64,000 bases of DNA from Scenedesmus sp. PABB004 (GCA_014905635.1 JABVCE010000017.1:682001-746000); one strand, 5' to 3'; shown: positions 3,206-33,022, numbered from the stretch's first letter. Notes: generated by a model not told the origin, from the letters alone. Numbers and translations are program-made.

Positions 3206-5063
3206 TCACGCCACGGCGTACACGGAGGTGGTGCAGCTGCCGCCGCACATCTGACTGCCGTTGCCGGGGCAGGGGCTCTCGCACTTGGCGCCAGACACCG
3301 GGTACCTGGCCGTGAACTTGAAGGGGCTCTGCCCCCCGCGGCACTCGTTGCCGTTCTGCAGCCCAACAAACCTGAGGCCGGCAGTCACCGCCTGCTCCCG
3401 GCAGGCATCCAAGGTCGTCTCGGGGCCGTAGGACAGGAGCGGCCACACGCGGTCCGAGGCGCCGCCCGTGCAGACAAGCTCCGGGAAGCAGCCCAAGTAG
3501 AGCGGCGGCGCGGCCGTTGAGACACCAGCGTAATAGAGCGAGGCCACGCATGCGCCGCCGCAGATCTGTGCCGAGTTGCCGGCACACAGGCTCTTACAGG
3601 CACCCAGTTCGACGCCGTACGGCTCCAGCGAGTTGCCGCCAAAGCAGCTGGTTCCGTTCTGCAGCCCCGCGAACCGGAAGCCGCCCGCCTTGGCGAGCGT
3701 CAGGCAGGCCTCCACGGTGTTGGCGGTCGTCTGGCCGAGGAAGGTAAAAAAGGGGCTGGTGTTGACGCCCTGCTGGCAGGTGCTGCCCGGCTCGCGGAAG
3801 CAGCCGACGTAGTCCCCGAGCGAGGTCACCAGGCCTGCGTGCAGCGGCAGCAACAACGGCGCGGCGGCAGCCAATGCGCAGTGAGCACGGAGCGGGCGCG
3901 GCGCAGCGCCCTGGCAGGCAGACCGTGTGCCCCGCTGCGCCGCCTGCGCCCCAGCGCAGCGGCGCCGCACCTGGCGTGCACTGCCCAGTGGTGCAGAAGC
4001 CTGGCACGCCCGACTCGGGCACAGCACACGTTGTGCCGTCGGGCTTGTTGGTCGGTACGGTGCACGAGGCGCCGCTGCAGCCGCTCGTTTGGCAGGGCGT
4101 CTCAGGCATGCACACGTTGGACCCGCACGCCAGCCCTGCCGGCATAAACGAGGCGTTGAACTGCTGTTTGATGTTGCCCGCAGTGCAGGGCTGCACATAG
4201 AAGCGAGACTCTGTGCGCTCGTACTGCAGGCAGAGACTTGCGTCGCACGCGGGGCGCAGCCGACCGCCATCCCTGAACCACCGCTGCAGCGCCGTCCCTG
4301 CGCAGGTCCAGCCGCGAATCTGCGCTCCAGCCGTGCATTCGCTTGTGACACCCAGGCAGGTCGTGAGCCCTGGGGCGGGCCGGCGCGCACAGCATAAGAG
4401 CGGCTGGTGGTGGCCGGCGCGGCTTTGGGCGCCGCCGCCACCGGCGCTCGCCGCCTCTGCTGCTGCCGCCGCCCTGCTTCCCATCAACGCTGCTGCCCTG
4501 TCCGCCGGTCAACAGCCGCCCCCAGCCCTGCCCACCTGTGAACTTCAGGGAGCCGTCTGTCCAGTACTGAAGGCGCTGGTTCTCGTTGCTGGCAGAGCAG
4601 TCTTGCGCCTCAATGAATGCATCCCTCTCGGGCGACAGAGGCGCGAGGCACTTGGTCGGGCTGCCCGCGGTCTGGATGGGACCCCTTGGGAGCGTGCAGC
4701 GCTTGCCATCTTTGGACGCCGCAAAGCCCTTGGGGCAGCGGCCCACGCAGCGGTGCGCGCCCGTCGCGCGGTCCGGCCGGCACACCGCCATGCCGTTGCG
4801 CGGCGCGACGCACGGCGCGCACGCGGGGCCGCAGGCCTGCACGGTGATGCACCGCGCGCTGTCCTGCTGCGGCGCCGTCGCCGACACAGCAGCGGCCGCC
4901 AACAGCACAAGTCCTGCGCGGCGCGCGGGCGGCGGGCGGCGGGCCGCGGGGCGCGTCGGCGGCTGCGCGCGCCTCCGCGGCCAGGCGCGCGCCGACGCAC
5001 ACGCAGCCTCATCTCCCGCGGACGGCCAAGCCACTCACCCGCGGCGAAGATCAGGGCCCGCAT
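3206..5063 (-). CDS. Secreted Cys-rich / ricin-B lectin / 2x WSC protein (paralog A, no protease)
   Basis: ATG 5063, signal peptide MRALIFAAGLVLLAAAAVSA, 4 exons. Beta-trefoil-like repeats (KCLAP...QDC...NQRLQY; CLGV...WTC...LQRW; CLQY...QPC...KQQF). Two WSC repeats (YVGCF...TVEAC...AGLQNGTSCFGG...C...CAGN...ICGG...SLY; YLGCF...GLQNGNECRGG...CPGNGSQMCGG...SVY). Confidence 0.85.
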
Positions 5064-6534
5064 GGCGCTGGGCGGCGCACAGGCAGCACAGGCGGCAGCG
5101 GCCGCGACGGCAGCACCAGGTGGGGCCTGCTGGGGGGTCGGCGCGCCGCTCGCAGCGGAGCGACGCAGCTCCACGGGGCCGGGAGAGCGGTCGGGCGAGC
5201 GGCGACGGGCCAATGCGCGGGCGCGGGGCGGCGAGGGCTGTCACGGCGTGGGAGGTCGCCCGCAGTGCGGCCGGTTGCACGGGTATCCAGCCAAACTCAG
5301 CGGCGGGATGAAACGAGTGGTGCGCGAGGGCCTGGACAAGCGAGATGGGCGCGGCGCCGGCCTCAATGCCCGGGCCGGCCCGCCATCGTGGTTCCGCGCA
5401 CTTCCGCCCGGTGACGACCGCCGGACGGCGCTGGAGGGGGGCGGGAGCGTGGGCAACTTCACCAGGGTGCTGCATGCAGGCTGAAAGCGGCGGCCCAGCG
5501 CTGGCCTCGCACCGGCGGGCCCGGGCGGCGCCGCGCCGCCGCTTCGCGCGATCGCGGCGCACCCGCGGCGGCCACAGCGGGACCGTCGGCGCAGCATGGG
5601 TGCCGACCACTGTGTTACATTGTGGGGCAACCGCTGTGCAGCGCTGCGCAGTTCGCCGGCGTCAAGCCGTTCAGCCCACGTCGGGAACACCCGGCGGCCG
5701 CGTGGTGCTCCACCCCGCCAACATGCAGCGCCGGGGACACATCCCTGCAGCGGCAGATCATCGCAGCGCAAGCTTCACGCGCCGTTGGCCGGCGCAAGCG
5801 ACAGTCTGCGCAACCACAGCGGTGGGTTGCGTTCTCGGGCGCGCCCCTCCCCTCCCCGCGCTGCCAGGTGCCGCCGCCGCCGTTGCCGCCGCTCCCACCG
5901 CCGTTGTTGGCGCCGCAGCAGCCGCTTCCCCGCCGTGCTTGGCATGCAACAGACTGTTTCTGCGCCCAAGGTCAGAGGCCTTGACAGGCGCCCCAGCACC
6001 TCACGGGTGCGCTGATTGGTTGTGATTGGTTGTGTTCTGTTGTGATTCATTCGACGCGTTCTCCTTGCTTTGCTTTGCTTTGCTTTGCTTTTCTTCTGCG
6101 ATGCACCCGCCAGCAGCGGCGGTATTCTCTGCCTTGTGGTTGTGCCGGGCGCACGCCGCACACGCCGCGTCCCGTGATTGCCCAACCCAGCCCCGAATGG
6201 TGATTGAGCCCAGCCGGCGGGGCGCTGCACAGCACCCCGCATGCGCGCACAGAGGTTGACGAAACGACTAAATTTCGCAAAAAGCAAAACATGCACCGAC
6301 GCCCGCAGCGGGAGACGTGGTGATCACTTGGCTGTTTGGATGCAGGGAGTCGTGCAGCCATGCCACAGGCACATCGGCTGCGCAAGAAGAACCTCACAGC
6401 CTCAATTCATTTCCCCAGCATGCTAGCACGTGCAAAGGTTGTCTACGGGACCAGCAGATATGCACAGTTTGCGCCGTGCTCACGCCGCGCGCTCCGCGGC
6501 GCCCCCCCCGCAGGGCGCGCGCCGCGCCAGCCGG

Positions 6535-9083
6535 TCACGCCACGGCGTACACGGAGGTGGTGCAGCTGCCGCCGCACATCTGACTGCCGTTGCCGGGGCA
6601 GGGGCTCTCGCACTTGGCGCCAGACACCGGGTACCTGGCCGTGAACTTGAAGGGGCTCTGCCCCCCGCGGCACTCGTTGCCGTTCTGCAGCCCAACAAAC
6701 CTGAGGCCTTTGGTCACGGCGAGTTCCTGGCAAACATCCACGGTCGTGCCCGGGCCTGCCGAGAGAAGCGGCCACACGCGGTCCGAGGCGCCGCCCGTGC
6801 AGACAAGCTCCGGGAAGCAGCCCAAGTAGAGCGGCGGCGCGGCCGTTGAGACACCAGCGTAATAGAGCGAGGCCACGCATGCGCCGCCGCAGATCTGCGT
6901 CGGCTTGCCCGCGCACGTGCTCCGGCATGCATCAAACTCAATGCCGTAACGCTCCAGCGAGTTGCCGCCAAAGCAGCTGGTTCCGTTCTGCAGCCCCGCG
7001 AACCGGAAGCCGCCCGCCTTGGCGAGCGTCAGGCAGGCCTCCACGGTGTTGGCGGTCGTCTGGCCGAGGAAGGTAAAAAAGGGGCTGGTGTTGACGCCCT
7101 GCTGGCAGGTGCTGCCCGGCTCGCGGAAGCAGCCGACGTAGTCCCCGAGCGAGGTCACCAGGCCTGCGTGCAGCGGCAGCAACAACGGCGCGGCGGCAGC
7201 CAATGCGCAGTGAGCACGGAGCGGGCGCGGCGCAGCGCCCTGGCAGGCAGGCTGTGCGCCCCGCTGCGCCGCCTGCGCCCCAGCGCAGCGGCGCCGCACC
7301 TGGCGTGCACTGCCCAGTGGTGCAGAAGCCTGGCACGCCCAACTCGGGCACAGCACACGCAGTGCCGTCGGGCTTGTTGGTAGGTACGGTGCACGAGGCG
7401 CCGCTGCAGCCGCTCGTTTGGCATGGCGTCTCAGGCATGCACACGTTGGACCCGCACGCCAGCCCTGCCGGCATAAACGAGACGTCGAACTGCTGTTTGA
7501 TGTTGCCGGCAGTGCAGGCAAGCACATAGAAGCGAGACTCTGTGCGCTCGTACTGCAGGCAGAGGCCGGGGTTGCATGCGGGGCGCAGCCGACCGCCATC
7601 CCTGAACCACCGCTGCAGCGCCGTCCCTGCGCAGGTCCACGCGCGGATCTGCGCTCCAGTTGTGCAGTCGCTTGTGAGGCCCATACAGGTTGTGTAGCCT
7701 GCGGCGGGCCGGCGCGCACAGCATAAGAGCGGCTGGCGGTGGCCGCCACGGCTTCGGGCGCCGCCGCCACCGGCGCTCGCCGCCTCTGCTGCAGCTGCCG
7801 CCCTGCTTCCCATCAACGTTGCTGCCCTGCCCGCCGGTCAACAGCCGCCCCCAACCGCCCCCAGCCCTACCCACCTGTGAACTTCAGGGAGCCGTCTGAC
7901 AAATACTGCAGGCGCTGGTTCTCGTTGCTGGCAGAGCAGTCTTGCGCCTCAATGAATGCATCCCTCTCGGGCGACAGAGGCGCGAGGCACTTGGTCGGGC
8001 TCCCCGAGGTCTTGATGGGCCCCCCTGCAAGCAAGCGGGCAGGTGGTGTCGAGTGTGTCAGCACCAGCCGCTGCTGCAGCCCCAGCTCGTGCGTGCTCGC
8101 GAGCGCGTGCGAGCGCGTGCGAGCAGCTCCCGAGGCTCACTCGCGGCGCACACGCCGGCAAGGCAGGTGCCTCGAGCGACCTGGCCCAGCGGCCCCGCGC
8201 CAGCAAACACGACGTTGCACGCCCGCGCGTCCGCTGCCGTCGTGGCTGGCGCGCAGCCCGAGCCCAACGAGCAGCTGCCTCTGAGCTGGCACGGCCCCGC
8301 GGGGCACCGCACGCCGCACGGAGCTTGGGTCGGGGGAGGCGAGGGGTCGGGGGTGGGCAGGAGGCTGCGCGCGTCGCCGCACAGGCGGATGTCGCCGCTG
8401 ACCGGGCTCGGCAGCGCGTCGCCCAGGGCGTCCACGTTGGCGGCGACCAGCTCCTCCAGGATAGCGTCCGTGCTGATCGCCGCCTGGGTGGCCTCCACGA
8501 CAAACACGAGTTGAGCGTGCACGTGCACGAGCCGGGTCGGCGCGCTGGGCGTGTAGAGCGCGCAGGCCGTGTCGTTGGGGTCGGGGCGCAGGCCGCGCGC
8601 AAACTCTGCGAGCGTCGCCGCGAGCTGGTCCGCCTGCTCGGGCGCGCCGGGCCTGTGCGCGAAGCGCAGCCCGAACGTCGCGTCCGGCTGCATGACGCCG
8701 GCGGCGCCGTACGCGATGTTCAAGCTCCCCCGGTCGCCCCACGACTCGCCCCAGCTGTTCTTGCAGCGAAAGAACAGCCGCGCGTCGTCCCAGCCGTAGC
8801 AGAACACGGCGTGCAGCGTGGGCGTGCTGTTGGACGCCGCGCCGGCGAGCGGGGCAAACACGGTGTCGGGCGAGGGCGGATAGAAGGCGAGAAAGTCATC
8901 GCTGATGGTGAGCGAGGTCAGCACGCCGCCGTTGAGCAGGATCTGGTGCTGCACGCGCGCGATGTTGCTCGCCGGGGCGATGCTGAAGCGGTGGCCTGCG
9001 CGCGGGCGCGCGGGGCTGCGGCGTGACCGCGGGCGCCGCCGCGGCCGCGCGCGGCGGCCGCGGCCCGCCACCTGGTCCCCCGC

Positions 9084-9127
<44 letters not shown>

Positions 9128-9404
9128 CACCTGGCGGCAGCGCGGACTTGCAGGGCGCGTCAGGCCCGTCGGTGAGGTACCATGCAAAGTTGACGCTGCC
9201 CGCCCTGTAGGCGAGGCAGCTGCGGGAGGCCCACGCGTCCATGCGCCCCGCATTGACACTGATGACGACGGAGTCGTACGTTGTGCCCGACCGGCAGTCC
9301 ACGGGGTCCAACAGGCGGCAGAAGCTCGCGTCCTGGGGGCGGGGCGCCGCCGCGCGTCCGCCACCAGCAGCGGCGCCGCCGCCCACGCGCGCTGCTGCCG
9401 CCGC

Positions 9405-9484
<80 letters not shown>

Positions 9485-10431
9485 ACGCCGCCGCCGCCGC
9501 CGCACCTGCTCCGACAGCCCCAGCGCGGGCCAGTCCTGCAGCATGTGGGCGTTCACCGCCGCCTCGCCCGCCGCGGTGAGCGCAAAGCCGACGCAGGAGC
9601 CGCAGCTGCCCTGGTTTTGCGCGGGGCTGATGAACGCGTGCCCGCCGAGCGTGTCGGACGTCGCGTTGCTGCTGTACGCCGGCGGCAGGAGCGTGAGCAG
9701 CAGCACGTCGTAGTAGTCGGCGCACAGCGTGGCCGACGCCTCCTCGCCGCACACCGCCGTCACGAGCTCGCCCTTCTTGCGCCCGCCCGTGCCGCCGCGC
9801 CCGCTGCCGCGGCCGCCCATGTCCTGCACCGTCTTGGCCCGCTCAAACAGGCCGGCGTAGGTCCCGAGCAGCTGCTGCGGGTCGGGCGGCGACTGAATGG
9901 CCGGCTTGTTGGGCAGCAGGCCCAGGCCGCGCCTGGGCGCGCGCGGCGGGGAGCGCGCAGCAGCGGGTGCGGCGCGTGAGGCGGCCGGAGGCGCCGCGCG
10001 CGGGCGCCGCGCGCGGGCGCGGCTGCAGGCGTGCTGCGCGCGTGCCGCCGCGACTCACGCCTCGCATCGCTTGCCGTTCTTGGACACCGCAAAGCCCTTG
10101 GGGCAGCGGCCCACGCAGCGTCGCACGCCCGTCGCGCGGTCCAGCCGGCACACCGCCGTGCCGTTGCGCGGCGCGACGCACGGCGCGCACGCGGGGCCGC
10201 AGGCCTGCACGGTGATGCACCGCGCGCTGTCCTGCTGCGGCGCCGTCGCCGACACAGCAGCGGCCGCCAACAGCACAAGCCCTGCGCGGCGCGCGGGCGG
10301 CGGGCGGCGGGCCGCGGGGCGCGTCGGCGGCTGCGCGCGCCTCCGCGGCCAGGCGCGCGCCGACGCACACGCAGCCTCATCTCCCGCGGACGGCCAAGCC
10401 ACTCACCCGCGGCGAAGATCAGGGCCCGCAT
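6535..10431 (-). CDS. Secreted papain-like (C1A) cysteine protease - ricin-B lectin - 2x WSC fusion (paralog B)
   Basis: ATG 10431 with the same signal exon as A. Protease motifs SPAQNQGSCGSCVGFA (oxyanion Gln, catalytic Cys), LSEQ, LHAVFCYGW (His) and KNSWGESWGDRG (Asn). Followed by ricin and WSC exons nearly identical to A. Confidence 0.85.
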
Positions 10432-11324
10432 GGCGCTGGGCGGCGCACAGGCAGCACCGGCGGCAGCGGCCGCGACGGCAGTACCAGGTGGGGCCTGCTG
10501 GGGGGTCAGCGCGCCGCTCGCAGCGGAGCCACGCAGCTCCACGGGGCCGGGAGAGCGGTCGGGCGAGCGGCGACGGGCCAATGCGGGGGCGCGGGGCGGC
10601 GAGGGCTGTCACGGCGTGGGAGGTCGCCCGCAGTGCGGCCGGTTGCACGGGTATCCAGCCAAACTCAGCGGCGGGATGAAACGAGTGGTGCGCGAGGGCC
10701 TGGACAAGCGAGATGGGCGCGGCGCCGGCCTCAATGCCCGGGCCGGCCCGCCATCGTGGTTCCGCGCACTTCCGCCCGGTGACGACCGCCGGACGGCGCT
10801 GGAGGGGGGCGGGAGCGTGGGCAACTTCACCAGGGTGCTGCATGCAGGCTGAAAGCGGCGGCCCAGCGCTGGCCTCGCACCGGCGGGCCCGGGCGGCGCC
10901 GCGCCGCCGCTTCGCGCGATCGTGGCGCACCCGCCGCTGCAAGATCGATCGCGGCGGCCGCGCGGCGGCGGCCGCGCGGCGCCGACCCTGCCCGTGGGGC
11001 GTGGGAGCGACCGCCAGCGCCGCACGGGCGCCACCCTCCCTTGCCGGCGTCACCAGCGCTGGCGAGGCCGCTGCTGCTGCGCGCGCCGCGCGTCGCCTGC
11101 AGCGCCGCGCGCCCGGCCTGCGGTGTCTAGCGCTCCACCAGCACGCACAAAGGCGCTGCAGCAGGCCGCCGCCGACACGCCGCGCCGGCCTGAGCGGCTG
11201 CCGGCGCCGCGAACGGCGAGCCCCCGGGCGCGGGCGAGCGGGCCCGCCGCCGCTTGCTCGCTTGCCGGTGCCGCGCCCGCCAGGCTGTGCGTGTGCCGCG
11301 CGGGCGGCGCGATTTGCGAGCAGG

Positions 11325-11416
11325 ACACCGTGTCCTGTCAAGCGGGTTCCCGCGCCCTGCGCCCGCGCGTGTTTTGCCCGGCGGCGCGCGCCCCCACGCC
11401 GCACCGCCACGTGCTC
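11325..11416 (+). promoter_or_regulatory. Candidate ER-stress promoter motifs upstream of GRP94
   Basis: ACACCGTGTCC (11325-11335) and CACGTGCTC (11408-11416); both also occur upstream of BiP. Confidence 0.45.
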
Positions 11417-11547
11417 TCGTCGTCGCTAGCAGGCCGGGCGTGACGTCGCGGAGCGCTCGCGCAGGAGCAGCAGCAGCATCGGCTGTCGGTTGCCCGGCCC
11501 TCGATCGCGCCCTGCGGCCCGGACGAAGTGCTCAGCACGTCGCAGGG

Positions 11548-14500
11548 ATGAGGCGTGCGACCGCGCTGCTGCTGGTCGGGCTCTGCCTGGCGGCGGCGTC
11601 AGGTGCGGGCGCGGGGGCAGCAGATTCGCGAAGATGGCCGCCCTCTCAGCGCCCCGCGCGGTCCGCAGCCCGCCGTTGGGCGGCCAGCTGAGCGGCATGA
11701 CCGCGGCCGCTGCATGAGCGCGCCGCATGACCGCGCCGGCCTGGCCCGCGGCGCCTGGCGAACAGCAGCGGCGCGCCGCCGCGCTCCCCTCAGGCGCGCT
11801 CGCGGCGGAGGCGGCGGCCGACCTCAGCGGCTCGCCCAAGGTGGCGGAGGACGGCGTCGGCGGCGGCAGCGGCACCGACGCGGCGGCGCCGGAGCGGTGC
11901 GCGCCGCGCTGAGGCCGGCAGCGCCGCGCGTGGCCGCCGTGGGGCGCGCCGCACGACCGCGCCGCCGCGCCGCGCCCGCCGCGCCGCAGCGAGGCGATGG
12001 GCAAGATGTCGTCGCCGGCCTTCCAGCGCAAGATCCGGGCGAACGCGCAGAAGTTTGAGTTCCAGGCGGAGGTGCGTGCGCGCCGCCAACCACCCCGCGC
12101 CGCCGCCGCGTTGTTCTCTGCCTGCCTCGACCGCCGCGCGCCCTCAACCCTAAGCCCTGCGCCCCTAAACCCTCCCTGAACCCTCTCAGGTGACGCGGCT
12201 GATGGACATCCTCATCCACAGCCTCTACAGCAACCGCGACATCTTCCTGCGAGAGCTCATCAGCAACGCGAGCGACGCGCTCGACAAGATCCGCTTCCTC
12301 TCACTCACAGGCGTGCGGCGCGTGGCGCGGCGCACGGCGCCGCGTGATGCCACGGCCGCGCGTGATGCCACGGCCGCGCGGCGCGAGGCGGGCCCTCGCG
12401 CGCTGCGCAGCGCCGACGCCCGCCGACACCGCCGCCGCGTGCCGACCGCCGCCCGCCCGCGCGCCGCGCAGACAAGAGCGTGCTGGGCGAGGGCAGCACG
12501 GCGGTGATGGACATCCGCATCTGGGCGGACAAGGACGGCCGCACGCTCTTCATCCGCGACCGCGGCGTCGGCATGACCCGCGACGAGCTCGTGTCCAACC
12601 TCGGCACGATCGCCAAGTCGGGCACGTCGGCCTTCCTCGAGGCGATGCAGAAGGGTGGCGACGTCAACCTGATCGGCCAGTTTGGCGTGGGGTTCTATTC
12701 GGTGTACCTCGTCGCGGACTGGGTCGAGGTCGTGACCAAGGCGCCCGGCGGGCAGCAGTGAGTCGTCGGGCGGGCGGGGATGCGCCGGCGGGGGAGCGTT
12801 TCTGGCGGCGGGCGCGCGGCGGGCGGGGGAGCATGGCGGGGGAGCGGCGGCGCGCGAGCGCGCGGGCGGCGGGCGGCGGGCGCGCGGGCGGCGGGCGGCG
12901 GGCGCGCGGGCGGCGCGCGGCGGGCGGGCCGCAGGGCGACGCAGCGGGCGCCGCGCGCACACGCCCCCGCGCCCACGCTCGCGCGCCGCCGCCGCGCGCC
13001 CCCGCGCCGCAGGTACATCTGGGCGTCTGGCGCGGACGGCGCGTTCAGCGTGTCGCCGGACGAGGGCGAGAACGAGGACCTGGGGCGCGGCACGCTCATC
13101 AAGATCCACCTTAAGGAGGACGCAGAGGTGCGGTTTAGCGTCGGGCCCGCTAAGCCCTCGACCCCGACCCCGCGCGGCGGCGGCCGCGCGGCGGCCCGAC
13201 CCAGGGCAGCCCCGCCCGCGCGCGCCGCCCGCGCGCCGCCCTCCCTCGCACCGCGCGCCGCGCACACGCGCCGCCGCCCGCGCGCGCGCCGCTGATGCGC
13301 CGCGCGGCGTCCCGTGCCGGCGCAGGAGTATGCTGACGAGGCGCGGCTGAAGGGCCTGGTGTCAAAGTACAGCGAGTTCATCAACTTCCCCATCTACCTC
13401 CAGGTGGGCAGGGTTTTGGGCAGTTTAGGCGGGGGTTTAGGCAGCGCCGGCCGCGGCGGCGGGGTTTAGGCGGGGTTGGAGTTCAGGGCTGGGCAGGCGG
13501 CGGGGCTGAAAGCACCGGGGCGGCGGGGACTGGGGCGTGGGGCCGGGCGCGGGGCATGCGGCGGCGCCGGCGGCGGGCCCGCCGACGCGCCCGCGCCGAC
13601 GCGGCCGCGCCGCCGCCGCCGCCGCCGCCGCGTGCAGACCACGACCGAGAAGGACGTGCCGGTCGAGGACGACGAGGAGGCGGCACCGGGCGACGACAAG
13701 GAGGGGGAGGCGGGCGACAAGGAGGAGGAGGGCGACGACGACAAGAAGGACGAGGGTGCGCCGCCGGGGTTGGGGTTGACGCCGGCGCGCCCGCGCGGCG
13801 GCGTCACGGCGTCCGCGCGGCGGCGGCCGGGGGCCAGCGTTCGCGCCGCGCGCGCGGCGCAGCACCTCCCACGGCGCCGCCCGGCCGCCCGACCGCGCGC
13901 GCGCCGCCGCCGCAGAGGAGGAGGACGAGGGCGACGTGGTGGACGAGGAGGAGGAGGAGGAGGAGGACAAGCCCAAGACGGTGCGCCAGAACGTGACGGA
14001 GTGGGAGCACCTCAACGACAACAAGGCCATCTGGCTGCGCAAGGCCGCCGACGTGGGGGAGGAGGAGTACACCAAGTTTTACAAGGCCATCAGCAAGGTG
14101 GGACGGGGTTTAGGGTTTTAGGGTTCCGGCCAGCCTCAACCCTGCTCTCTCTGCGGGGCTGCGCGCGCCCCGCATGCGCGGGGGACCGACCGCGCCCCGC
14201 TGCGCCCAACCGCCGCCGCGCCGCGCCCAACCGCCGCCGCGCTGCGCCCAACCGCCGCGCCCGCCCCGGGGGCGCGCGCGCGCCGCGCAGGACTGGGACG
14301 CGCCGCTGAGCCGCATCCACTTCCGCGCCGAGGGCGACGTGGAGTTCAAGGCCCTGCTCTACGTCCCCAAGCACGCGCCGCACGACTTCTACGACACCAT
14401 CCAGCGCCCCAAGAAGGCCGGCTCGAGCGGCCCCGCCGGCGCGCAGGCGGGGGGCCTGAAGCTCTACGTGCGCCGCGTGTTCATCAGCGACGACGTCGAC

Positions 14501-23119: not shown

Positions 23120-24624
23120 GGCGACAGGGACACTCCCGAGAGCGTTGCGGGGCTGGTGCCGCGCCGCGAGGGGGCGCGGCGGGCACGTCTCCGCGCGCGC
23201 GACTGTTTCAGACCGCACGGGCTGGGGCGCCGCACAAAAGGCTTGAGAGCGCGCCAGATGCCTAGCTGAGGGAGCCTCCCACGCATGGCGCTTGCCGTCG
23301 AGCCTCGAGCTGCCGAGCTGACCACGTACTGGGCGGGCAACTGCTGGCGAGACGTGCCCGTAACAGCGGCCGCGTGCGGCCCGCGCGTGGGCCCGCAGCC
23401 GCGCCAACAGTGCTCCTGAGCTTAAAACGACCAGTTCCGCGTCCTGGAACGGCGGTCGCGGAGGCGGCGCGCGCCGCCACTCGCCGGCGCGCGCCGCTGC
23501 TGCCGCCGCACCCGACGCGGCGCCGGCCCTGCTGGCTGGGGCTCGTGGCTGGGCGTCGAGCTCAGAGCTGACCGCCACGGCAGTGGCGGCGGTGAGTCTG
23601 CGCACTCGCCGCCGGTGCCTGCTGCTGGTCGCGCCTGCCGCTCCAGCGCAGTGGGGGTCGGCACCGCTGCCGCCGGCGCGCTGGCGTCACTTGCAGCTGC
23701 CCCGGGCAAGCGGGCCCGCTTGCCCGCGACGCGTGGAAGCTGCTGGCAATGCCGTGCTGCAGCTGGCTGGCCGCCGCGTGTGGGCGCTGGCTGCGTGGAC
23801 TGACCACCCGGCCGCACGCCGGCGGGCGCTGACCCTGCAGCGCGGCAGTCGTGGCGCCAGGCCGGTGACCTCTGCGGCTGGCGGGCCCCCGCCAGCTGGC
23901 GAGGGCCCCGCCAGCACACCAGACGCAGCAGGCAGGTGGTGCGCGTCACCGCCGCGCCTGCACTCGCACACACAACCGTTGCAGCGCCTGCCCGTTTTTG
24001 CTTCCACACCTCCACACACCCCCACTGCGCCGCGCCGACTGGGAGCGCTCCGCCCCGTGTGCCGTCGCCTGCTCCCGGCGGTCAAAGCTTGCCCTGGAGA
24101 CCAAAACCATCCGAGAAACCTCAACCGAGCAGCACCGTCCCCCCGACCACCACACGCGGCACCCGCTGGTGGGGCACGCCGCAGCGGTCTCGCCGCCCGT
24201 GAATCGTTGTGCCCCTGCCACATCGCCCGTCCCCCCGGCCCTGCCACGACAGCGCACCACCTCGCGCGCAATGAGCATTTGAAGCTAGCTCGTTCTGATC
24301 TGCGCCTAGGCGCAGCAAAGGCTTAACTTGTCCTGCCCCAGGCGCCCGTCGTTGCTGCTTGCGCACAAGAAAAAGCGACCTGCGGCAGGCGCCGCGCGGG
24401 CGTTCTTGACCGGTCGCCGTACTCCCGAGCCGCCTGGTTTGTTGGTTGAGTCGCAGCACGTGGATGCTGGTGATAACTGCACAACAACGCGGTGCGTCGA
24501 TGAAAGCAACTGGCTACAAGTGCGTGGGAGAGGATGGGGTTGGAATACTTGCCTGCGGCGCGCAGGATGCGAGGGATGCAATGGCGTGCGCTTGAACACG
24601 GAAAAGCACCGTGCACACAGTCCT

Positions 24625-26680
24625 TCAATCAAGAGACACGAGCTTTGTCACCAGCGCGTGCGCGGCGGCGCCCACGGGCGTGCACGCCCGCGCTCGCAGG
24701 CCGGCGCCCCACGCCGCCAGCGCGTCGCTGCCCACCAGGGGCCCTTGCGCGCTGCCCAGCGTGCTCAGCAGGCCATCCAGCTCCAGGGCGAGCGCCTCCA
24801 GCAGCAGCAGCGCGGAGGCGCGTGTGGGGCGCATTCCCCCGCTCTGCGTGGCGGCGCCTGGCTGCGTGAACTGCAGCACCACCTGCCCCACCAGGCTGGT
24901 CGCCGCCACGTGGCACATGGCTGCCGTGGCGCCGTCTGCGCCAGCCGGCTCCGCCTGCCTGAGCTCGCGCAGCACCTGCACCATCTCCGACACCACAGGC
25001 GCCTCGGACTCCCCGCCCAGCAGCGCCACGTGCATGCGCAGCACGGCGTGCAGGCAGTGCTGCAGCACCAGCTGCGCAGACGCCACGGGCGTGGTGGGGC
25101 TGACGACCGCGGCGCCCCGGGCCTGCGCCGGTGCCATGACCGCGCCGGGACCAGCACCGCCGCCGGGGCTGCTCACCTGGGGCTGGCGGTTGAGCTGCGC
25201 CGGCCCCTGCAGCAGCGAAGTGCTGTTGTCCGTGGTGCCCCCGCTGCACATGCGCTCGAGGAGCTGCAGCTGCTGGCGCATCGTGCCCACGATAGCCCTG
25301 CCGCGCTCGTCAAGGCTGCCGTCCGCCGGGCGCTTCACGCCAGCGGAAGAGACCCCCTGCGTCAGCTGCTCCAGCTGCTGCTGCTGGCCCAGCGCTGCCT
25401 GCAGTGCTGCTGGCGCGGACGGCGTGCACTGCAGGTCCATGCTTGGCCACTGCGCCACGATCTCCTGCGGCTGCTGAGCCGGCACGCCGAGGCTCGCCCA
25501 GCCGCCGTCACTTGCAGCGGCCGTGCCAGCGGGGCCGACCGTCGTGCCCGAGCTGGAGCTCAGGCGCCCAGGGTTGCGCTCGCTGCCCAGGCTGGTGGTG
25601 CAGCTGGGGCTGGTGCTGCCCAGCTCCGTGCGCAGCTGCGGCACAGGCGGCTGCAGCGCCGACGCGCAGAGCCAGGCTTCCTGCACCTCTCCCAGCCCGC
25701 CAAAGGCTGCGAGCGGCGGCGGCGCCTCGCCGTCGCCAGGCCCCGCGCTGCCGGTCGGGACCAGCTCAAGCGCGTGCGCCAGGCCGCTGTCTGCCAATGC
25801 CGGCGCCGCCAGCTCCAGCTCTGTGCTGCCGGGCAGCTCTAGGTGCTCGCTGTCGAGCGGCGCCAGCAGCCCTGGCGTCGGCAGGGGCGTCGAGTCGCCC
25901 ACCATGCTCAGCAGGTGCTGGAAGTCTGCCTCATCCATCGCTGCTGCGTCTGTAAAGCCAGAGGTGCTGCTGCTCTGCGCAACGAGCAGCCCGCCGTGCG
26001 GCAGCACCGCGGGCGGCGGCGCGGCGTGGTAGGGCTGCGCTGCCGCCAGCCCCTGCGGTGCAGCCTGCAGCTGCGCCTGCAGCTGCGCCTGCAGCTGCGC
26101 CTGCAGCTGCGCCATCATCAGGCGCTCATGCTGGGGCGCCTGCGGCCGCGTGTGCGCGCGGCGCGCTGCCACGCTGATCTGGGCGAGGAAGGCCGTCAGC
26201 CGCTCGGCGACCTCGCGGTTGTCCAGCTGCTGGGTGCCCAGCGGGTAGTTGGTCCTCACGGCGCGCTTGACAGACTGCATGCTCACAGCGACCTGGTCGT
26301 ACGCGAGGCGCGCGCTGTGCAGGTCGGCGTACCTGCGGCGGCGGCGGCGGCGTGCTCAGGCGGTGCCGGCGCGTGCGGCAGCGCGTTCGAGCGGGCCCGC
26401 CGGCGCGCCCGGCAGCAGCATTCGCCTTGCCGCGTGTGCGCGCGGCGGTGGAGCGCGTGCGGGCCCGGCGCGGCCGCCCCACACGGCGGCGCGGGTGCCC
26501 GCCACCGCACCTGCCGACCTCAAGGACGCGGCCTCGGTGGTGGAAGCGGACGCGGTAGTTGCGGCCGTGCGGCCTGGGGTCCCAGCTCACGCCCAGGCCG
26601 AGGCGCCCGCCCGATGCCGAGGCCGAGGGCGCGGCGCCGCTTCCGCTGCATTCGTCCGTGCGCGCCGCGTCAGCGCTCAT
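24625..26680 (-). CDS. AP2/ERF-domain transcription factor
   Basis: Exons 26680-26511 and 26332-24625 splice to GVSWDPRPHGRNYRVRFHHRGRVLEVGRYADLHSARLAYDQVAVSMQSVKRAVRTNYPL, an AP2 pattern (GV...G.Y....A..AYD.....TNFP-like). Followed by Q-rich and acidic low-complexity sequence. Confidence 0.78.
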
Positions 26681-27425
26681 GCTAGACCTCGAAACGCTGC
26701 TGGCGGTGCGCCCAGGCGGGCTGCGTGCGGCAGCAGGCGCTGCTGCGAGCGATCTCCGTGTCCCGCCGCCGAAACACCGCCCTCGCCCGCTATTGATCCG
26801 CCTTGAGCTGCCTCACCGACCTCCACGGAACCGCGCGGCGGGGCTGTGCCGCCCGGGGCCGCAGCAGCCGAGGACGGCGCGGTGTGCGACCTAACACGAG
26901 CAGAGGCGGTGGCATGGGGAGCGAGAGAGGTGCCAGCGTGCGCGGCAGACGAACAGGCGGCGCTCCGCACGGGCGCGCAGCGTCCCAGGGCTCAGGCAGC
27001 CGGATCCGGCGCAGCTGCTCGCCAGGTGCCCGCCAGCTGCCCGGCGGCGGCCAAGCCCTCCGCCGCCGGCGGCGCCGCTGCCCCAGACCCCAGCCGGTCG
27101 CCTCGTGCTGCCACGCACCCCGGCGGACTGAAAGGCCGGCTGGCGTCACCGCCGGCAGTCAATGCCCGGCCCGCCGCACGCACGGGCAGCGCGGCGGCGC
27201 ACCAGCAGGCTCTGCTGGCAGCAGGGCAGCACAGAGGCATTCGTGGTGCCGGGGCGGCGCACTCCGCTGGCAGGCTACGTTACATGGCACGCCGAGCCGC
27301 GCGCGAGCGCCGCTGCGGCTTCAGCGCGCTGGGCCGCCGGCCCAGCGCCGCACGGCCTGCGCGCGCATGTGTCGCACGCGTGCAGTGCGCGCCCAGGGGC
27401 CACGCCGGCGCGCCTGGCAGGGCGC

Positions 27426-28132
27426 TCATTTGAGCCAGGGGATGCAGGCTTTGCCGTCCTTGACGGCGACGGCGTCGGCGGGAGCGGTGCCGTTGAAGAG
27501 GCGAGGGTTGGCACTGAGGAAGCGCGCCAGCGCCAGCTGCGAGTCGGCCGAGCGCGCGATGACGTCAACAGCAAGCTCGCCGGCGACCACCGGCACGCGC
27601 TCAGCGCAGCGCCGGCCACGGCAGCGGGGATCATCTGGCTTGCGATCACCGCAGCCGGTGCCACCCCTTCCGCCGGGGCCGCGGCCGCTGGGATCCGCGG
27701 CGCCGGTCACCGCCGCTCCGTTGTCGCCGCCGGCAGCCACCGCCAGGCGCCGGTGCAGCAGCACGAGCGGCTCTGCGGCCTGTCGGCGACGCGGCGGCGC
27801 GGTGGCGCGGCAGCAGCGTCAGGCACTCTGCGCGTGCCCACCTCGCGCCGGCGCGCGGGCTGAGCCTCAGCGCACCTGTGTTGCCGCGTCGCTCACGGCA
27901 ACCTGGTCGGCAGCGCCTGCGAGGCCGCCGCCGGCGCAGTGCGGCGCAGGGGCAAGGCGGTGAGTGGGATGCGCAGGGCGCGCGGTGCGACTGGCGCGCC
28001 GCCGGGGCCCCCGCCCGCCGCCGCACCGTTGCCGGCGCCGGCGCCGCGCAGCGTCGCGGCCGTGCAGGGCCCCAGCAGGACCGCCGTCAGAAGAACGCAC
28101 AGGCACTGCTGGGCGGCCTGCGGGCGCGCCAT
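27426..28132 (-). CDS. Small secreted protein with a degenerate C-terminal LysM-like domain
   Basis: Three exons in frame via GT-AG; signal MARPQAAQQCLCVLLTAVLLGPCTA; RRL motif; C-terminus CAERVPVVAGELAVDVIARS...LARFLSANPRLF...KDGKACIP resembles a Cys-bracketed LysM. Confidence 0.55.
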
Positions 28133-28511
28133 GTGTGGCAAGGGCCTGGCCACCGAGTGAGGCAGCTCGCGGGCGCGCCTGTTGCCGCGGCTAGCGTGCT
28201 CCACGAGTTGCAGCACACGAATAGACGACGCTGGGCCTGCACGAGGCGCTTCCCGCGCGGTGCAGGGAGGTGAACCCGCGTCGCCGATGTCACCGGCTCA
28301 ATCGCCCGCGTCCCCGGCCCTGAAACACCGTCCCATCCAGTGGGTTCGACGTCTGATCGCTGTTTCATCCTTCCAGGGCGCCGCCCTGCCGCAACGCACC
28401 GTCCGCGCAGGTGCACGGCCTCGCCAAACCCCCGGCGCCTCCCCCGGCCGGCTGCGTGCGCCCCGCCCCACGCGCGCGACGGCATCGTGCGTCGGAGGAG
28501 GCGCTGCAGAC

Positions 28512-31500
28512 ATGGGCGGCCAGCCGCGCTGCCGCGGCCGCTGGGCGGGCGGTGAGCTGCCGCGCGCGCCGCCGGCGCTGCCACCGCGCGGTGCCGCCAT
28601 GCCCGCAGCCCGCAGCAGCCGCCGCTGGCGGCAGCAGCCGACGGGCCGTCCCGTCGCTGTGCAACAGCTCACTCGCACCGCCCGCCGCAGGCTGTGCGCT
28701 CCTGGCCTGCCTGCTCGTGACCTGCCGCGCCGAGCCCTCCTCGCCCGGCTCTGCAGGGGCGCGGGGCCTGCAGCAGGCGAGCCGCTGTGCCAACACGGCC
28801 GCCGCGTGTGGGCGCGCCTGCCGGCCCTGCGCCGTGCCGGTCAACGGCCAGGCCGTCTGCCGGCGGCTCAAGTCGGGCGCCTCCCGCTGCGACGTGCGCT
28901 GCAACGCCAGCTACGCGCGCGTCCCTGGGACGCCGCTTTCCTGCGCGGCCCGGTGAGCGGCTGGCTGCGCGCGCGCATGCGCATGCGTGCACGCGCGCAC
29001 GCGCGCGGCCGCGCTGCACCGAGCGTCCCCCGCCCGCGCGCCCGCGCGCCGCCGCGCCGCCGCGCCGCCGGCCACCTCCCCCCCCCCCTCTCGCTGCCGC
29101 GCGGTCGCAGGCGCACGGGGCTCATCCCCAACCGGGAGAGCAACATGAAATCCTCGCGCGACCGCTTCCTCTCAAGCTACAAGGCCCTCTCCGGCAAGGC
29201 GCGCGACATACGCGACATGGGCGGCCGCGGCGCCGGCGGGAAGGGCGGCACTGGCGGGCGGCGCGCGCGCGCGGAGCTGCTCAACGTCACGTGCGGCGCG
29301 GTCACCAACCCGCCGTGCGCCGGCTACTGGGACGCGGTCATCCTGTCGGTGACGCCGGCCCGGTACAGCAGCAACGCGACGTCCGACACGCCCGGCGGCC
29401 GGGCCCTCATCAGCCCCGCGCAGGACCAGATGAACTGCGGCTCCTGCGTCGCGTTTGCGCTCACCGCGGCGGCCGAGGCGGCTGCCAACTCGCTCCGGGG
29501 GCAGGACTGGCGCGCGCTGGGCCTGAGCGAGCACGACCTCGCCTTCTGCCGCCTGGCGCTCAACTGCGGTCGGGGCATGACGTACGACGACGCGCGCACC
29601 AAGATTGAGGCGCCTGCGCCCGGCAGCCCGGCCGTCAACGCCCTGGCCACGTGGACGGCCCGGGCGTGCATGCCGTACGACCTGCAGTCGTCCAAGACGA
29701 CCACCGAGTACTGCACCGACGAGGCGGCCCGGCCCGACGCGTGCGCGCCGGCGCTGCCGCCGGGTGCGGCGCCCGCGCGCATGGCCTGGGCTGCGCGCGC
29801 CCGCCCGCGCGCCTGGCCTGAGCGCGGACCCCTGCCCGCCGCCGCCCACGACGCAGGCTACAAGTTCAGCCTCACGCCGCTGCTGAACGTGGCCCAGGTG
29901 AAGCGACACATCATGCTGCACGGCGGCGTGGTCACCATCCTGGGCGTGGTGCCCGACTTTTACGCGCTCAAGAGTCCAGCGTCGCTCCAGCTGTTCAACA
30001 AGACGGTGGCCGAGTCTGATGTCAAGGAGTGGCACGCGATCTTCTGCTACGGCTGGGACGACGCAGAGGGCAGCTGGGTCTGCAAGGTGCGGCCCGCCGG
30101 CGCGCGCCGCCGGGAGCGGCACGCAGTGCGAAGAGCGCGCGGGCCGCCGGCTGCGCTGCTGCTGCCCGTCTCGCGGCTGGGCTGCACGCGCGTGACCCCC
30201 TGCTGCCCCCCCCCCCTCGTCCGCCCGCAGAACTCCTGGGGCCAGGACTGGGGCTGGCGCGGCAGCGTCAAGGTAGCGTACGGCTCGGCGTTTGTGATGA
30301 CCGACAGCGACACGCACGGCATGGCCTACGCGCCCGACTCGCCTGACGAGCGCAGCAAGTGGGCGAGCACGATCAGGCAGGACTTCAGGGGCCGCGCCGC
30401 AGCCGACCCAAACAACACCGACTGCCTGCTGCTGAGCCCGGCGCGCCCCACGCGGCTGGCGGCGGTCGCCTCCCGGCTGGCGTTTTACGCGCGCAACGTG
30501 GCCGCCTCGCGCGCGACGCTGGACGAGCTGACCGAGGCGCTGGTGGCGGACAACGTGGGCGACCTCGGCGCAAAGCTTGGAGACGCGATCGGTGCGCCCA
30601 TCAGGGTCTGCGGCGAGGCGCGCACGCTGCTGGCAGCCGCCGCCGCGCCGGAGCCGCCGCCCACGCCCTCGCCGGCGCCGGCGCCGGCTGCGCCGTCGCC
30701 GGAGCCGGCGTCGCCGTCGCCGGCGCCAGCTGGGCCGTCACCAGAGCCAGCGTCGCCGTCGCCGCCGCCAGCGTCGCCGTCGCCGCCGCCAGCGGCGCCG
30801 TCACCATCGCCCGAGGCTCAGAGCCCGCCCAAACCCTCTCCGTCACCAGGTGAGCCGCTGCTTGGCCTCCCCCCACCTCTCACCCACTCCCACACGCTCA
30901 CCCACACCCACGCCCACGCCCACCCACACCGCCCAGTGCCTCTGCCATCGCCCTCCCCGGCGCCGGCCAGCCCCGGGCCTGCGCCCACGCCTGCGCCAGT
31001 CCCAAGGTGAGGCGCAGCTTGCGCTGCACGCACACGCCTCACTGGCCGCCTCCTGACCCGTCGTCGCGCGCGCGCAGCCCGTTTATTCCGCCGCCAACAA
31101 CGGCCAAGTGCGGCCCTCTGTGCCCGGCCGGGCCGTGCCAATACCGCGGCAGCTGCTTCTCATCATACGGCTGCGACCCCGCCACGGTGGTAGCCGACGG
31201 CATGGACTGCAGCTTCCAGTTTGCTGGCGCGGGGACGCTGGGGCAGGTCGCTCAGGGCACCTGCTGGGCCGGCGTGTGCGCCGCCAGTGAGTGCACCCGG
31301 CTGCGGCCGGCACGCGCGCGGCCATGGACGGGGCGGCAGCAGCTGCACGGGGCGGCAGCAGCTGCTGCCGCAGCACCGACCCCACCCGCCACCCACTGCT
31401 GCCAGGAGGGACCATTCAGACCATGCAAAGCCCGACCAAGTGCGTCACAGCTCCGACCGGCGCCAACGGCGAGTTGGCAGAGGCGCGGGACTGCACCTTT

Positions 31501-33022
31501 GGCGACGACAGCCAGCGCCTCACTTACCTGTCGGACGGATCCCTGCAGTTCACAGGTGGGAAGCAGCGCTGGCCAGGCAGCAAAAGGGGGGGGGGGCAGC
31601 TGGCGAGCTCCTCAACTGCGGCGCCAGCAGGGGGCGGCGCCAGCAGCAGCAGCGCAGGCGGCGAGCGTCGTCGGCTGCGGCCCTAAGCTGCGGCGGCCAG
31701 CGCCAGCCGCTCTCATGCTGGGAGCACCGCCCCGCCGCAGGCTTCACGACCTGCCTGGGCATCACAGGCGGCTGCACGCCTGGGGCGCAGATCCGCGCCT
31801 GGACCTGCGCGGGGACGGCGCTGCAGCGGTGGTACAGGGATGGCGGGCGGCTACGCCCCCTGTGCGACCCCGGCCTCTGCCTGCAGCACGATCAGGCCAG
31901 TGCTCGCTTCGTTGTGCAGACCTGCTCGGCCGGCGACAGTCAGATGTTCAGTGCTGCCAGCATCCCTGCAGGTGGGCTGGCTGCCGCGACCGCAGTCCGC
32001 CGTCCCTGCCACTGGATGCTCACGCAGCCCGGTGCCTGCCCCGTTGCGCCGGCCCGGTCATGCAGGGAGGCTGTGCGACGCCACAGTGTGCATGCCCGAG
32101 ACGCCCTGCCAGACGAGCGGCTGCAACGGCGCGTCGTGCGTCGCGCCGACCAACAAGCCCGACGGCACGGCGTGCGCCGTGCCCGAGTCGGGCGTGCCCG
32201 GCTTCTGCACCGCTGGGCAGTGCATGCCAGGTGCGGCGCCGCTGCGCTGGGCGCAGGCGGCGCAGCGGGGCGCACAGCCAGGCGGTGCAGCGGGGCGCAC
32301 GGCCTGCCTGCCAGGGCGCTGCGCCGCGCCCGCTGCGCGCTCACTGCGCGTTGGCTGCCGCCGCGCCGCTGTTGTCGCCGCCGCACGCAGGCGTGGTGAC
32401 CTCGCTCGGGGACTACGTCGGCTGCTTCCTCGAGCCGGGCAGCACCTGCCAGCAGGGTGTAAACGCTCGGCCCTTCACCTTCCTCGGCGATACCATCGCC
32501 AACACTGTGCAGGCCTGCCTGGCGCGCGCCAAGGCGGGCGGCTTCCGGTTTGCGAGCGTGCAGTTTGGGACGAACTGCTTTGCCGGCAACTCGCTGGCGC
32601 GGTACCCCATCGAACAAGCCGTCTGCAGCAAGCCGTGCGCGGGCAACACCGAGCAGACCTGCGGCGGCACGTGCTCCGTATCTCTCTATTATGCTGGCAG
32701 CTCCGCGACCGCGCCGCCGCTCTATCTCGGCTGCTACCAGGAGCCTGTCTGCACCCCTGGGGGCAGCTCAGGGGATCGCATGTGGCCTGTCGTCAGCGCG
32801 GGGGCGAGCATGACCCTGCAGGTCTGCCAGCAAGCGGCGCTGACCGCCGGCTTCAAGTTTTTCAGTCTGCAAGACGGCACCGAGTGCCGTGCGGGGCACA
32901 GCCCGGTCAGGTTTATGGGCGCCGCCATTTCCGAGGGCGGCAGGTGCGAGCACCCGTGCCCCGCAAACAACAGCCAGATGTGCGGCGGCGGCTGCATGGG
33001 CTCATTGTACGCGGTCGCGTGA
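28512..33022 (+). CDS. Secreted papain-like protease - Pro/Ser linker - ricin-B - 2x WSC fusion (paralog C, more diverged)
   Basis: ATG 28512, intron 28552-28690, signal GCALLACLLVTCRA; SPAQDQMNCGSCVAFA, LSEHDLAFC, WHAIFCYGW, K|NSWGQDWGWRG; (SP)n HRGP-like linker 30650-30850; ricin and two WSC repeats ending SLYAVA-stop at 33022. Confidence 0.85.

Follow-up and report, generated by a model that had tools for sequence, protein, structure and literature searches.

The 64,000-nt stretch of DNA analyzed here (GCA_014905635.1 JABVCE010000017.1:682001-746000), called the window below and numbered from its first base, comes from Scenedesmus sp. PABB004, a green alga of the Scenedesmaceae. It carries three paralogous genes, A, B, and C, of which B and C appear to code for secreted papain-like proteases joined to lectin domains. 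The G+C content is approximately 76% across the whole window, and the genome of 39.8 Mb is reported to contain 78.5% G+C (PMC12571836), in agreement with the window. The spliced genes mark the DNA as eukaryotic. Lists of open reading frames (ORFs) are useless here because all frames are open at the G+C content of the window. The gene models were therefore obtained with a dynamic programme based on codon bias and GT..AG splice sites, and were corrected by hand on three-frame views and by the conservation between B and C. Three intact paralogs emerged exactly where the original prediction, made from the bare sequence, had located them:

3206-5063, minus strand: gene A, 476 aa, without protease; 4 exons (5039-5063, 4536-4913, 3971-4369, and 3206-3834 including the stop codon).
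6535-10431, minus strand: gene B, 969 aa; 8 exons (10407-10431, 10059-10281, 9506-9932, 9131-9332, 8141-8995, 7875-8024, 7300-7698, and 6535-7163 including the stop codon).
28512-33022, plus strand: gene C, 1086 aa; 11 exons (28512-28551, 28691-28952, 29111-29763, 29857-30086, 30231-30849, 30937-31006, 31078-31286, 31406-31555, 31741-31971, 32066-32230, and 32391-33022).

None of the three reading frames contains an internal stop codon, and all three end on the shared terminus ...YAVA-stop. The introns are of the GT..AG type throughout, most of them beginning with GTGAG or GTGCG and ending in CAG. Six intron positions are common to B and C in identical phase; one further intron is private to B, and three or four are private to C. 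The range for C reflects an 87-nt intron (30850-30936), which lies in frame within a linker and is uncertain; C has 10 exons if it is not real. One deposited protein derives from this locus, the 1414-aa KAF8060353.1 (P0006), which was automatically named "Wscd1 [Scenedesmus sp. PABB004]". Its residues 1-936 are identical to residues 1-936 of B, its residues 939-1414 are identical to the whole of A, and its splice sites agree with the independently built models of A and B.

In B and C, a signal peptide is followed by a module with eight cysteines, a C1A protease, an extension of approximately 110 aa, a second 8-Cys module, a ricin-B trefoil, a third 8-Cys module, and two WSC domains. Pfam and alignments thus bear out the predicted architecture, including the catalytic Gln, Cys, His, and Asn. 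All domains listed in the original prediction were found, but the conserved extension behind the protease had been omitted. Likewise, A had been described as the same scaffold minus the protease. The protease is indeed absent, but so is the second Cys module. The domains are located as follows:

B 10064-10219 (aa 30-81) and A 4696-4851, minus strand; C 28786-28944, plus strand: Cys module 1, eight Cys (alignment).
B 8358-10060 (aa 83-505, introns included), minus strand: pro-region, papain-like catalytic domain, and extension (Pfam, PDB alignments, and AlphaFold2, AF2).
B codon starts 9613 (Gln190), 9595 (Cys196), 8813 (His354), and 8759 (Asn372), minus strand: catalytic residues (alignments).
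B 8358-8684 (aa 397-505), minus strand: extension (AF2 and family conservation).
C 28948-30632 (aa 100-529), plus strand: pro-region, catalytic domain, and extension.
C codon starts 29427 (Gln207), 29445 (Cys213), 30033 (His378), and 30231 (Asn396), plus strand: catalytic residues (alignments).
C 30633-31108, plus strand: Pro/Ser/Ala-rich linker with (SP)n-type repeats (translation and alignment).
B 8145-8318 (aa 519-576), minus strand; C 31109-31282, plus strand; none in A: Cys module 2, eight Cys (alignment).
B 7475-8001 (aa 586-702, one intron) and A 4146-4662, minus strand; C 31429-31961, plus strand: ricin-B trefoil (Pfam).
B 7162-7456 (aa 709-761) and A 3833-4127, minus strand; C 32074-32392, plus strand: Cys module 3, eight Cys (alignment).
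B 6538-7140 (aa 769-862 and 873-969) and A 3209-3811, minus strand; C 32414-33019, plus strand: WSC1 and WSC2 (Pfam).

The protease of B and C is assigned to the papain family C1A, has a predicted papain fold, and is likely catalytic according to its conserved residues. Peptidase_C1 (PF00112) matches KAF8060353.1 with an E-value of 3.4e-13 (50.6 bits against a cut-off of 20.7; profile positions 13-206 of 220). On single exons of B and C the scores drop to 17-33 bits, because introns split this domain as well as the ricin-B domain. The catalytic Gln and Cys, in the motif (D/N)Q..CGSC, and the Asn, in KNSWG, are in register with cathepsin L (3f75) and falcipain-2, and the catalytic His lies within HA(V/I)FCYGW in the family alignment. 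An AF2 model that covers B 84-577 and was built with an 85-row family alignment reached a pLDDT of 84.6 and a pTM of 0.83. With this model Foldseek retrieved cathepsins K, L, and S at E-values of approximately 1e-10 and TM scores of approximately 0.75-0.8, and VIA retrieved Der f 1 with a Z score of 22.5 and a root-mean-square deviation (rmsd) of 2.5 over 212 residues. Three N-terminal helices of the model (18-36, 52-61, and 73-81) are confidently predicted and look like a pro-region, because the zymogen chains 1xkg, 1pci, 7avm, and 1deu align from model residue 3-12 onward.

Judged by eye, the N-termini resemble signal peptides (MRALIFAAGLVLLAAAAVSATA in A and B; a basic start followed by hydrophobic residues in C), which suggests that all three proteins are secreted, and no C-terminal membrane anchor was recognized by eye in any of them. 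The three 8-Cys modules correspond to no Pfam family. For module 1 only cEGF was found, at E-values of 0.015-0.02, weaker than the cut-off; module 2 has no Pfam match and an AF2 pLDDT below 50; and the sole lead for module 3 in the ESM Atlas, Dicty_CTDC at 0.78, is unreliable. Ephrin_rec_like was matched in one Hariotina relative only. The linker in front of module 2 of C is far longer than the short PTPDPSPPPTQAP linker of B and presumably resembles hydroxyproline-rich algal wall glycoproteins. Ricin_B_lectin (PF00652) matches KAF8060353.1 with an E-value of 7.7e-23 and 81.5 bits, the best stretch (profile positions 3-126 of 126) being the copy of A, and exon 9 of C reaches 30.9 bits (cut-off 29). 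The three ricin-B subdomains can be read by their motifs QRLQY, LQRW, and KQQF. WSC (PF01822) is matched by two stretches in each of A, B, and C (E-values from 7e-23 to 1.6e-26, profile positions 1-82 of 82), with 1.6e-26 on the last exon of B, 1.1e-24 on that of C, and 1.6e-33 on KAF8060353.1; each WSC domain has eight cysteines. From the identity of these domains, the ricin-B and WSC parts are expected to bind glycans. In a fungus, WSC proteins are reported to bind glucan (PMC9252488, whose references include Wawra et al., 2019).

B and C belong to a larger, modular protease family. A core profile of B, C, and the three first matches was searched against 1.84 billion representative proteins and retrieved 12,207 of them at an E-value ≤1e-3 and 81 at ≤1e-30. 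The relatives scanned with Pfam are the 51 longest among the best 150 of these 12,207 matches. In five of the 51, C1 is combined with ricin-B, and the only one that also has WSC is this locus. Eight combine C1 with LRR or LRRNT, and two more contain LRR only. LysM accompanies C1 in three relatives, once above the cut-off and twice at or below it, and PLAT, C-type lectin, SUEL lectin (sub-threshold), BTRD1, and RCC1-like domains accompany it once each. One relative, a fragment, has ricin-B only, one has no family, and the remainder contain C1 alone. Such a repertoire of partners appears typical of ligand or non-self recognition. P0017, considered as a natural protease-less form, was rejected as a fragment that begins in mid-domain on a 3.8-kb contig. 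The named relatives (30 of the best 150 were looked up) all are Sphaeropleales, namely Tetradesmus obliquus, Hariotina reticulata, Enallax costatus, Chromochloris zofingiensis, and Monoraphidium minutum, whose genus we take to belong to this order.

In a FastTree phylogeny of 46 sequences, B and C fall into an 11-member Scenedesmaceae clade (support 0.991) together with P0003, an RCC1-type paralog of the same genome that pairs with C (support 0.89). A Tetradesmus subclade (support 0.995) mixes ricin-type and RCC1-type members, which indicates that C-terminal partners have been exchanged within the clade. Both the block of ricin-B and Cys module 3 and the pair of WSC domains are flanked by phase-1 introns, as expected for exon shuffling. 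The order of C1A, ricin-B, and WSC is probably older than this species, because a C-terminal module of P0005 from T. obliquus aligns to the WSC domains of the window. Pfam finds C1 and ricin-B but no WSC in P0005, and BLASTP reaches WSC with an E-value of 0.07. In hhalign, the first C-terminal module of P0005 matches the window WSC with a probability of 91.7% and an E-value of 7.9e-7 over 74 columns, and the second module matches weakly (E-value 0.0068). Three adjacent T. obliquus models, P0039, P0012, and P0059 (OEZ86_001527 to 001529), hold in turn a WSC-like piece, C1 with ricin-B, and ricin with a C-terminal piece; either these models were wrongly split, or they form a tandem cluster in which, as with A and B, some members lack the protease. 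The view that this architecture is not a named family holds in that no Pfam model of the combination and no description in the literature was found. It has to be amended in that the gene is already deposited under an automatic name and is one branch of a modular C1A family, whose named members here all are Sphaeropleales. Literature searches returned no paper describing a protein with C1A, ricin-B, and WSC, and a comparative-genomics paper on Sphaeropleales makes no mention of papain, cysteine proteases, WSC, ricin, or lectin. In the literature searched, this exact architecture, its conserved extension, and the family with its changing partners thus appear to be undescribed.

The extension between the protease and Cys module 2 is conserved across the relatives in the family alignment. 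Modeled alone, it attains a pLDDT of 94.2 and shows a strand, two helices, and a strand at positions 41-102. No solved structure matched it (the best VIA Z score is 4.2 and the best Foldseek E-value 0.4), which does not in itself establish a new fold, and the ESM Atlas contained no usable match. What the extension may be derived from is hinted at by the sister clade, where a true LysM domain occupies the same position (P0095; 38.4 bits in Pfam), and by a home-made hidden Markov model (HMM) from two seeds, which places LysM directly behind the protease in 28 retrieved relatives. The LysM-bearing chains 8rhe and 5jcd align to the extension with VIA Z scores of 3.6 and 3.3, respectively. In hhalign, the extension and the sister-clade LysM match with a probability of 43.7% and an E-value of 2.4e-4, over 26 columns only. 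Pfam LysM (PF01476) is not found in the extension up to an E-value of 10, the sole match being DUF5503 at 0.3, and HMMs iterated from both sides did not join the extension clade and the LysM clade, apart from one match at 0.0044. A LysM origin of the extension thus stands at about even odds.

Gene A differs from B and C in having lost its protease, and the breakpoint and the upstream region are preserved in the window:

4686-4695, minus strand: deletion junction in A (self-BLAST and junction alignment).
5064-5566, minus strand: A's own copy of the 5' flank of B (B 10432-10934; alignment).

In self-BLAST, A and B are same-strand tandem repeats: A 2639-4685 corresponds to B 5962-8024 (93.9% of 2068 nt) and A 4696-5566 to B 10064-10934 (98.0% of 871 nt). 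Between these two matches lies a block of approximately 2 kb that is present in B only (8025-10063). C, on the opposite strand, is approximately 78% identical to the 3' halves of A and B. At the junction, exon 2 of A ends 5 nt short of the donor site of B and is fused to approximately the last 11 nt of B intron 5, and the junction bases are translated in frame as Thr-Leu-Pro. This arrangement indicates that B was recently duplicated in tandem and that the copy, A, lost the protease and Cys module 2 through an in-frame genomic deletion. A splice variant does not account for it, because a transcript without exons 3-5 would be out of frame (phase-2 end against phase-1 start), and the state of B is taken as ancestral because C and the Tetradesmus relatives carry the protease. 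The protease is therefore "optional", as the original prediction put it, only insofar as A has none; its absence is a secondary deletion in that gene. The further proposal that A shares the promoter of B fails, because the two genes follow one another in the same orientation, each with its own 503-bp flank; the copy in front of A shows 6 mismatches (98.8% identity). A also retains its start and stop codons, the signal peptide, and three introns, all of them canonical. Contigs from four freshwater metagenome runs leave the bin with the A junction (4488-4771) uncovered in all four, and are neutral on the junction because their joints fall into the A/B repeat or have short sides. Runs X2 and X3 contain pieces of 145-200 bp with 0-1 differences from window positions 3088-3831 and 8453-9816, and pieces from runs X1 and X5 differ from the window by approximately 5%. 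As these pieces match the window, the same or closely related algae are present in the sampled freshwater.

Where A and B still overlap, their differences are distributed unevenly. They differ at 91 of 1421 coding sites and at 32 of 1494 non-coding sites (Fisher p 9.5e-9), and nearly all differences lie in four patches (A residues 123-154, 175-207, 339-356, and 400-419):

Approximately 4311-4574, 4152-4250, 3569-3622, and 3380-3439, minus strand: patches of ricin-B, WSC1, and WSC2 sequence where A and B diverge.

The proportions of synonymous (pS) and nonsynonymous (pN) differences are 0.44 and 0.16 in the patches, against 0.023 and 0.006 in the other shared coding sequence, and introns and flanks differ by 0-6%. 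This mosaic suggests either an escape of the patches from gene conversion or sequence exchange in the form of imports from other paralogs. C was considered as the donor. Of the sites that differ between A and B, A equals C at 37 and B equals C at 39. C was rejected because the two kinds of sites alternate in mixed order (37 runs, 39 expected; z -0.46), so that neither copy is simply C-like.

Taken together, the domains of B and C suggest secreted, lectin-guided papain-like proteases that act on foreign surfaces in defense or another interaction, a reading that we adopt tentatively and rate a little short of an even chance. After export, which the signal peptide would direct, the protein would be retained on a polysaccharide surface by its ricin-B trefoil and WSC pair, possibly assisted by the extension if this is LysM-derived, and the 8-Cys modules, together with the long Pro/Ser-rich linker of C, would serve as spacers. 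The C1A domain could thus cleave proteins embedded in that surface, which most likely would be foreign, such as the walls of bacteria or of parasites (chytrids, aphelids, or fungi). A would be a lectin-only protein expressed under its own copy of the 5' flank of B. The lean toward a foreign target is based on the recognition-type partners in the family, on lectin domains that vary patchwise, and on a neighboring gene. At window positions 41657-43246, on the minus strand and 8.6 kb from C, one frame codes for LPMO_10 (AA10; E-value 4.3e-6) and a hevein-type Chitin_bind_1 domain (8.2e-9), with Pro-rich linkers and an extra small Cys-rich tail. It looks like another secreted, chitin-directed protein.

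Several observations weigh against defensive proteases of this kind. The Trp next to the catalytic Cys of papain is replaced by Val in B, C, and all close relatives, and Pfam detects no Inhibitor_I29 propeptide in the B and C exons, in KAF8060353.1, or in the 51 relatives. The ratio of nonsynonymous to synonymous change (dN/dS) is below 1 throughout (0.35 for A vs. B and 0.67 for B vs. C), and the A/B mosaic is no demonstration of point-wise positive selection, because synonymous change in the patches is equally high. The chitin-directed gene near C may be there by coincidence. Finally, the intact frame of A is weak evidence of function, as most of it is nearly identical to B and a junction would be in frame by chance in approximately 1 of 3 cases.

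The surface could also be the alga's own, an explanation that is less likely but a serious rival. The protease would then be anchored in the mother-cell wall or coenobial matrix, for autospore release or wall turnover, and A would be a non-catalytic wall lectin. The long (SP)n-type linker of C, with its presumed likeness to algal wall glycoproteins, would suit such a role, and Cwp84 (4ci7) offers one example of a C1A protease that is anchored in the wall and reportedly processes surface proteins of its own cell. Moreover, Scenedesmus autospores are described as being freed by sporangial autolysis, with the maternal walls shed (PMC11839794). However, the swappable LRR, LysM, and lectin partners and the patchwise divergence of the lectin domains would be unexpected for a housekeeping enzyme, and neither Wscd1 nor KAF8060353 appears in the text and one supplement of a wall proteome paper. 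KAF8060350.1, whose accession is close to that of the deposited protein, had been detected in maternal walls of Scenedesmus by its peptide LYQFTQGR; it was discarded because no frame of the window contains this peptide.

A different objection concerns A, which might not be an independent gene but part of a B-A read-through unit, as in the 1414-aa model, or a young silent remnant. In the deposited model, residue 936 of B is followed by sequence that starts 5 nt ahead of the ATG of A, joined through an AG|GTACCC donor within the last exon of B and a CAG acceptor (window 6535-6636 and 5064-5068), and the near-identity of A to B outside the four patches makes its intactness little telling. This junction, however, drops the last 33 residues of B and thereby the end of its WSC2. 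The merger apparently is an annotation artifact, because A, B, and C all end alike and the merged model truncates WSC2 of B; gene predictors commonly merge tandem paralogs. A has also kept its start codon, signal peptide, three introns, and flank as described above. We consider it improbable, then, that A is no gene of its own. The practical consequence is that the deposited model appears to fuse two genes under a misleading name, and that C is not among the database proteins found. Searches in the length ranges covered returned no database protein identical to the protease or WSC exons of C, and this gene may be unannotated or annotated outside these ranges.

Much less probable is a role in nutrient scavenging, in which proteases tethered to detrital or bacterial glycans would free amino acids or peptides for uptake. 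The proteins do look secreted and carry general glycan binders, but a multi-module, Cys-rich, and paralog-diversified design seems elaborate for bulk digestion, and nothing specific speaks in favor of this role. That the protease and lectin parts are separate genes wrongly joined is hardly credible at all: the T. obliquus models OEZ86_001527 to 001529 do hold pieces of the architecture separately, but the intron that separates Cys module 2 from ricin-B measures 116 nt (B) or 119 nt (C), is in phase 1 in both genes, and offers no start or stop context, the frames are continuous across six shared introns, both parts are united in the deposited model, which has the same coding sequence, and in several models from Tetradesmus and Hariotina, and a transcriptome-derived Enallax ORF has C1 and LysM on one mRNA. 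The single-gene structure that had been proposed for B and C thus is upheld.

If the foreign-surface reading is extended to the whole family, the Sphaeropleales might possess an undescribed recognition-and-attack system. A C1A core with a LysM or LysM-derived module would have been recombined repeatedly through phase-1 introns with ricin-B/WSC, LRR, C-type or SUEL lectins, or an RCC1-like propeller, the lectin patches would be kept diverse between tandem copies, and A would act as a free lectin, decoy, or competitor. This extension is speculative, and we regard it as doubtful. Should parasite walls be the targets, the genes would provide a handle on innate defense in mass-cultured algae of the Scenedesmus type, which suffer crashes caused by chytrids and aphelids. 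In any case, A and B are a natural pair for asking what the protease contributes to the lectin scaffold.

Within introns of gene B, positions 9333-9505 (intron 3) and 9028-9126 hold GC-rich triplet and short repeats, which appear in ORF lists as poly-Ala, poly-Arg, or (PR)n. According to self-BLAST, the low-complexity tracts of the B introns resemble tracts elsewhere in the window. The surroundings of the three genes include housekeeping genes, namely HSP90 pieces at 12.2-16.7 kb (plus strand), a SAM-dependent methyltransferase at 35.2-36.5 kb (plus strand), HSP70 pieces at 49.7-53.6 kb (minus strand), and a cyclin N-terminal domain at 57.0-58.0 kb (plus strand). Long frames with high G+C at third codon positions at 21.7-26.4 kb (minus strand) matched no Pfam family.

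Among known enzymes, the C1A proteases of the papain family, such as cathepsins L, K, and S and Der f 1, share PF00112, the catalytic Gln, Cys, His, and Asn, the NSWG motif, and the predicted fold with B and C. However, identity amounts to only 16-24%, and B and C differ from them by the Val in place of Trp, the lack of an I29 match, the extension of approximately 110 aa, and the lectin and Cys-rich tails. In plants, papain-like proteases of the RD21 type consist of a protease, a Pro-rich linker, and a Cys-rich C-terminal granulin domain. The general order is the same, but the Cys modules of B and C lack the paired-Cys pattern of granulin and have no granulin match in Pfam. Another green alga, Volvox carteri, has a secreted papain-type cysteine protease that Amon, Haas, and Sumper reportedly described in 1998 as pheromone- and wound-induced and equipped with chitin-binding repeats, and for which a defense role is said to have been proposed. 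A parallel is seen in the sister-clade relatives, whose LysM directly follows the catalytic domain. B and C instead bind through ricin-B and a WSC pair, if they bind glycans as expected, and their domain at the LysM position is too diverged for Pfam. No Volvox protein was among the five returned by a search with the Enallax C1 and LysM protein. Cwp84 of Clostridioides difficile (4ci7) likewise combines a C1A protease with a lectin-like domain and wall-binding repeats and aligns to the B model with a VIA Z score of 19.6 (rmsd 2.8, 221 residues), although it is bacterial, its anchoring repeats are unrelated, and the match covers the protease part only (model 9-324). Fungal WSC lectins and Wsc wall sensors have the same 8-Cys WSC fold, whereas in the window the WSC pair is placed at the C-terminus of a protease/lectin protein without a membrane anchor. 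In the oomycete Saprolegnia parasitica, ricin-B is fused to secreted catalytic domains that include proteases, and binding to target-cell surfaces has been proposed (PMC3681718). The example named there, SPRG_15005, differs from B and C in being a subtilase without WSC, from an unrelated lineage and with a role proposed in a pathogen. The principle of a lectin-guided secreted protease is not new, because such proteases are known in oomycetes and bacteria and are reported in Volvox. What is new is the combination of a divergent C1A core with a conserved, possibly LysM-derived domain, ricin-B, and two WSC domains, and the many alternative recognition modules that this core bears across the Sphaeropleales.

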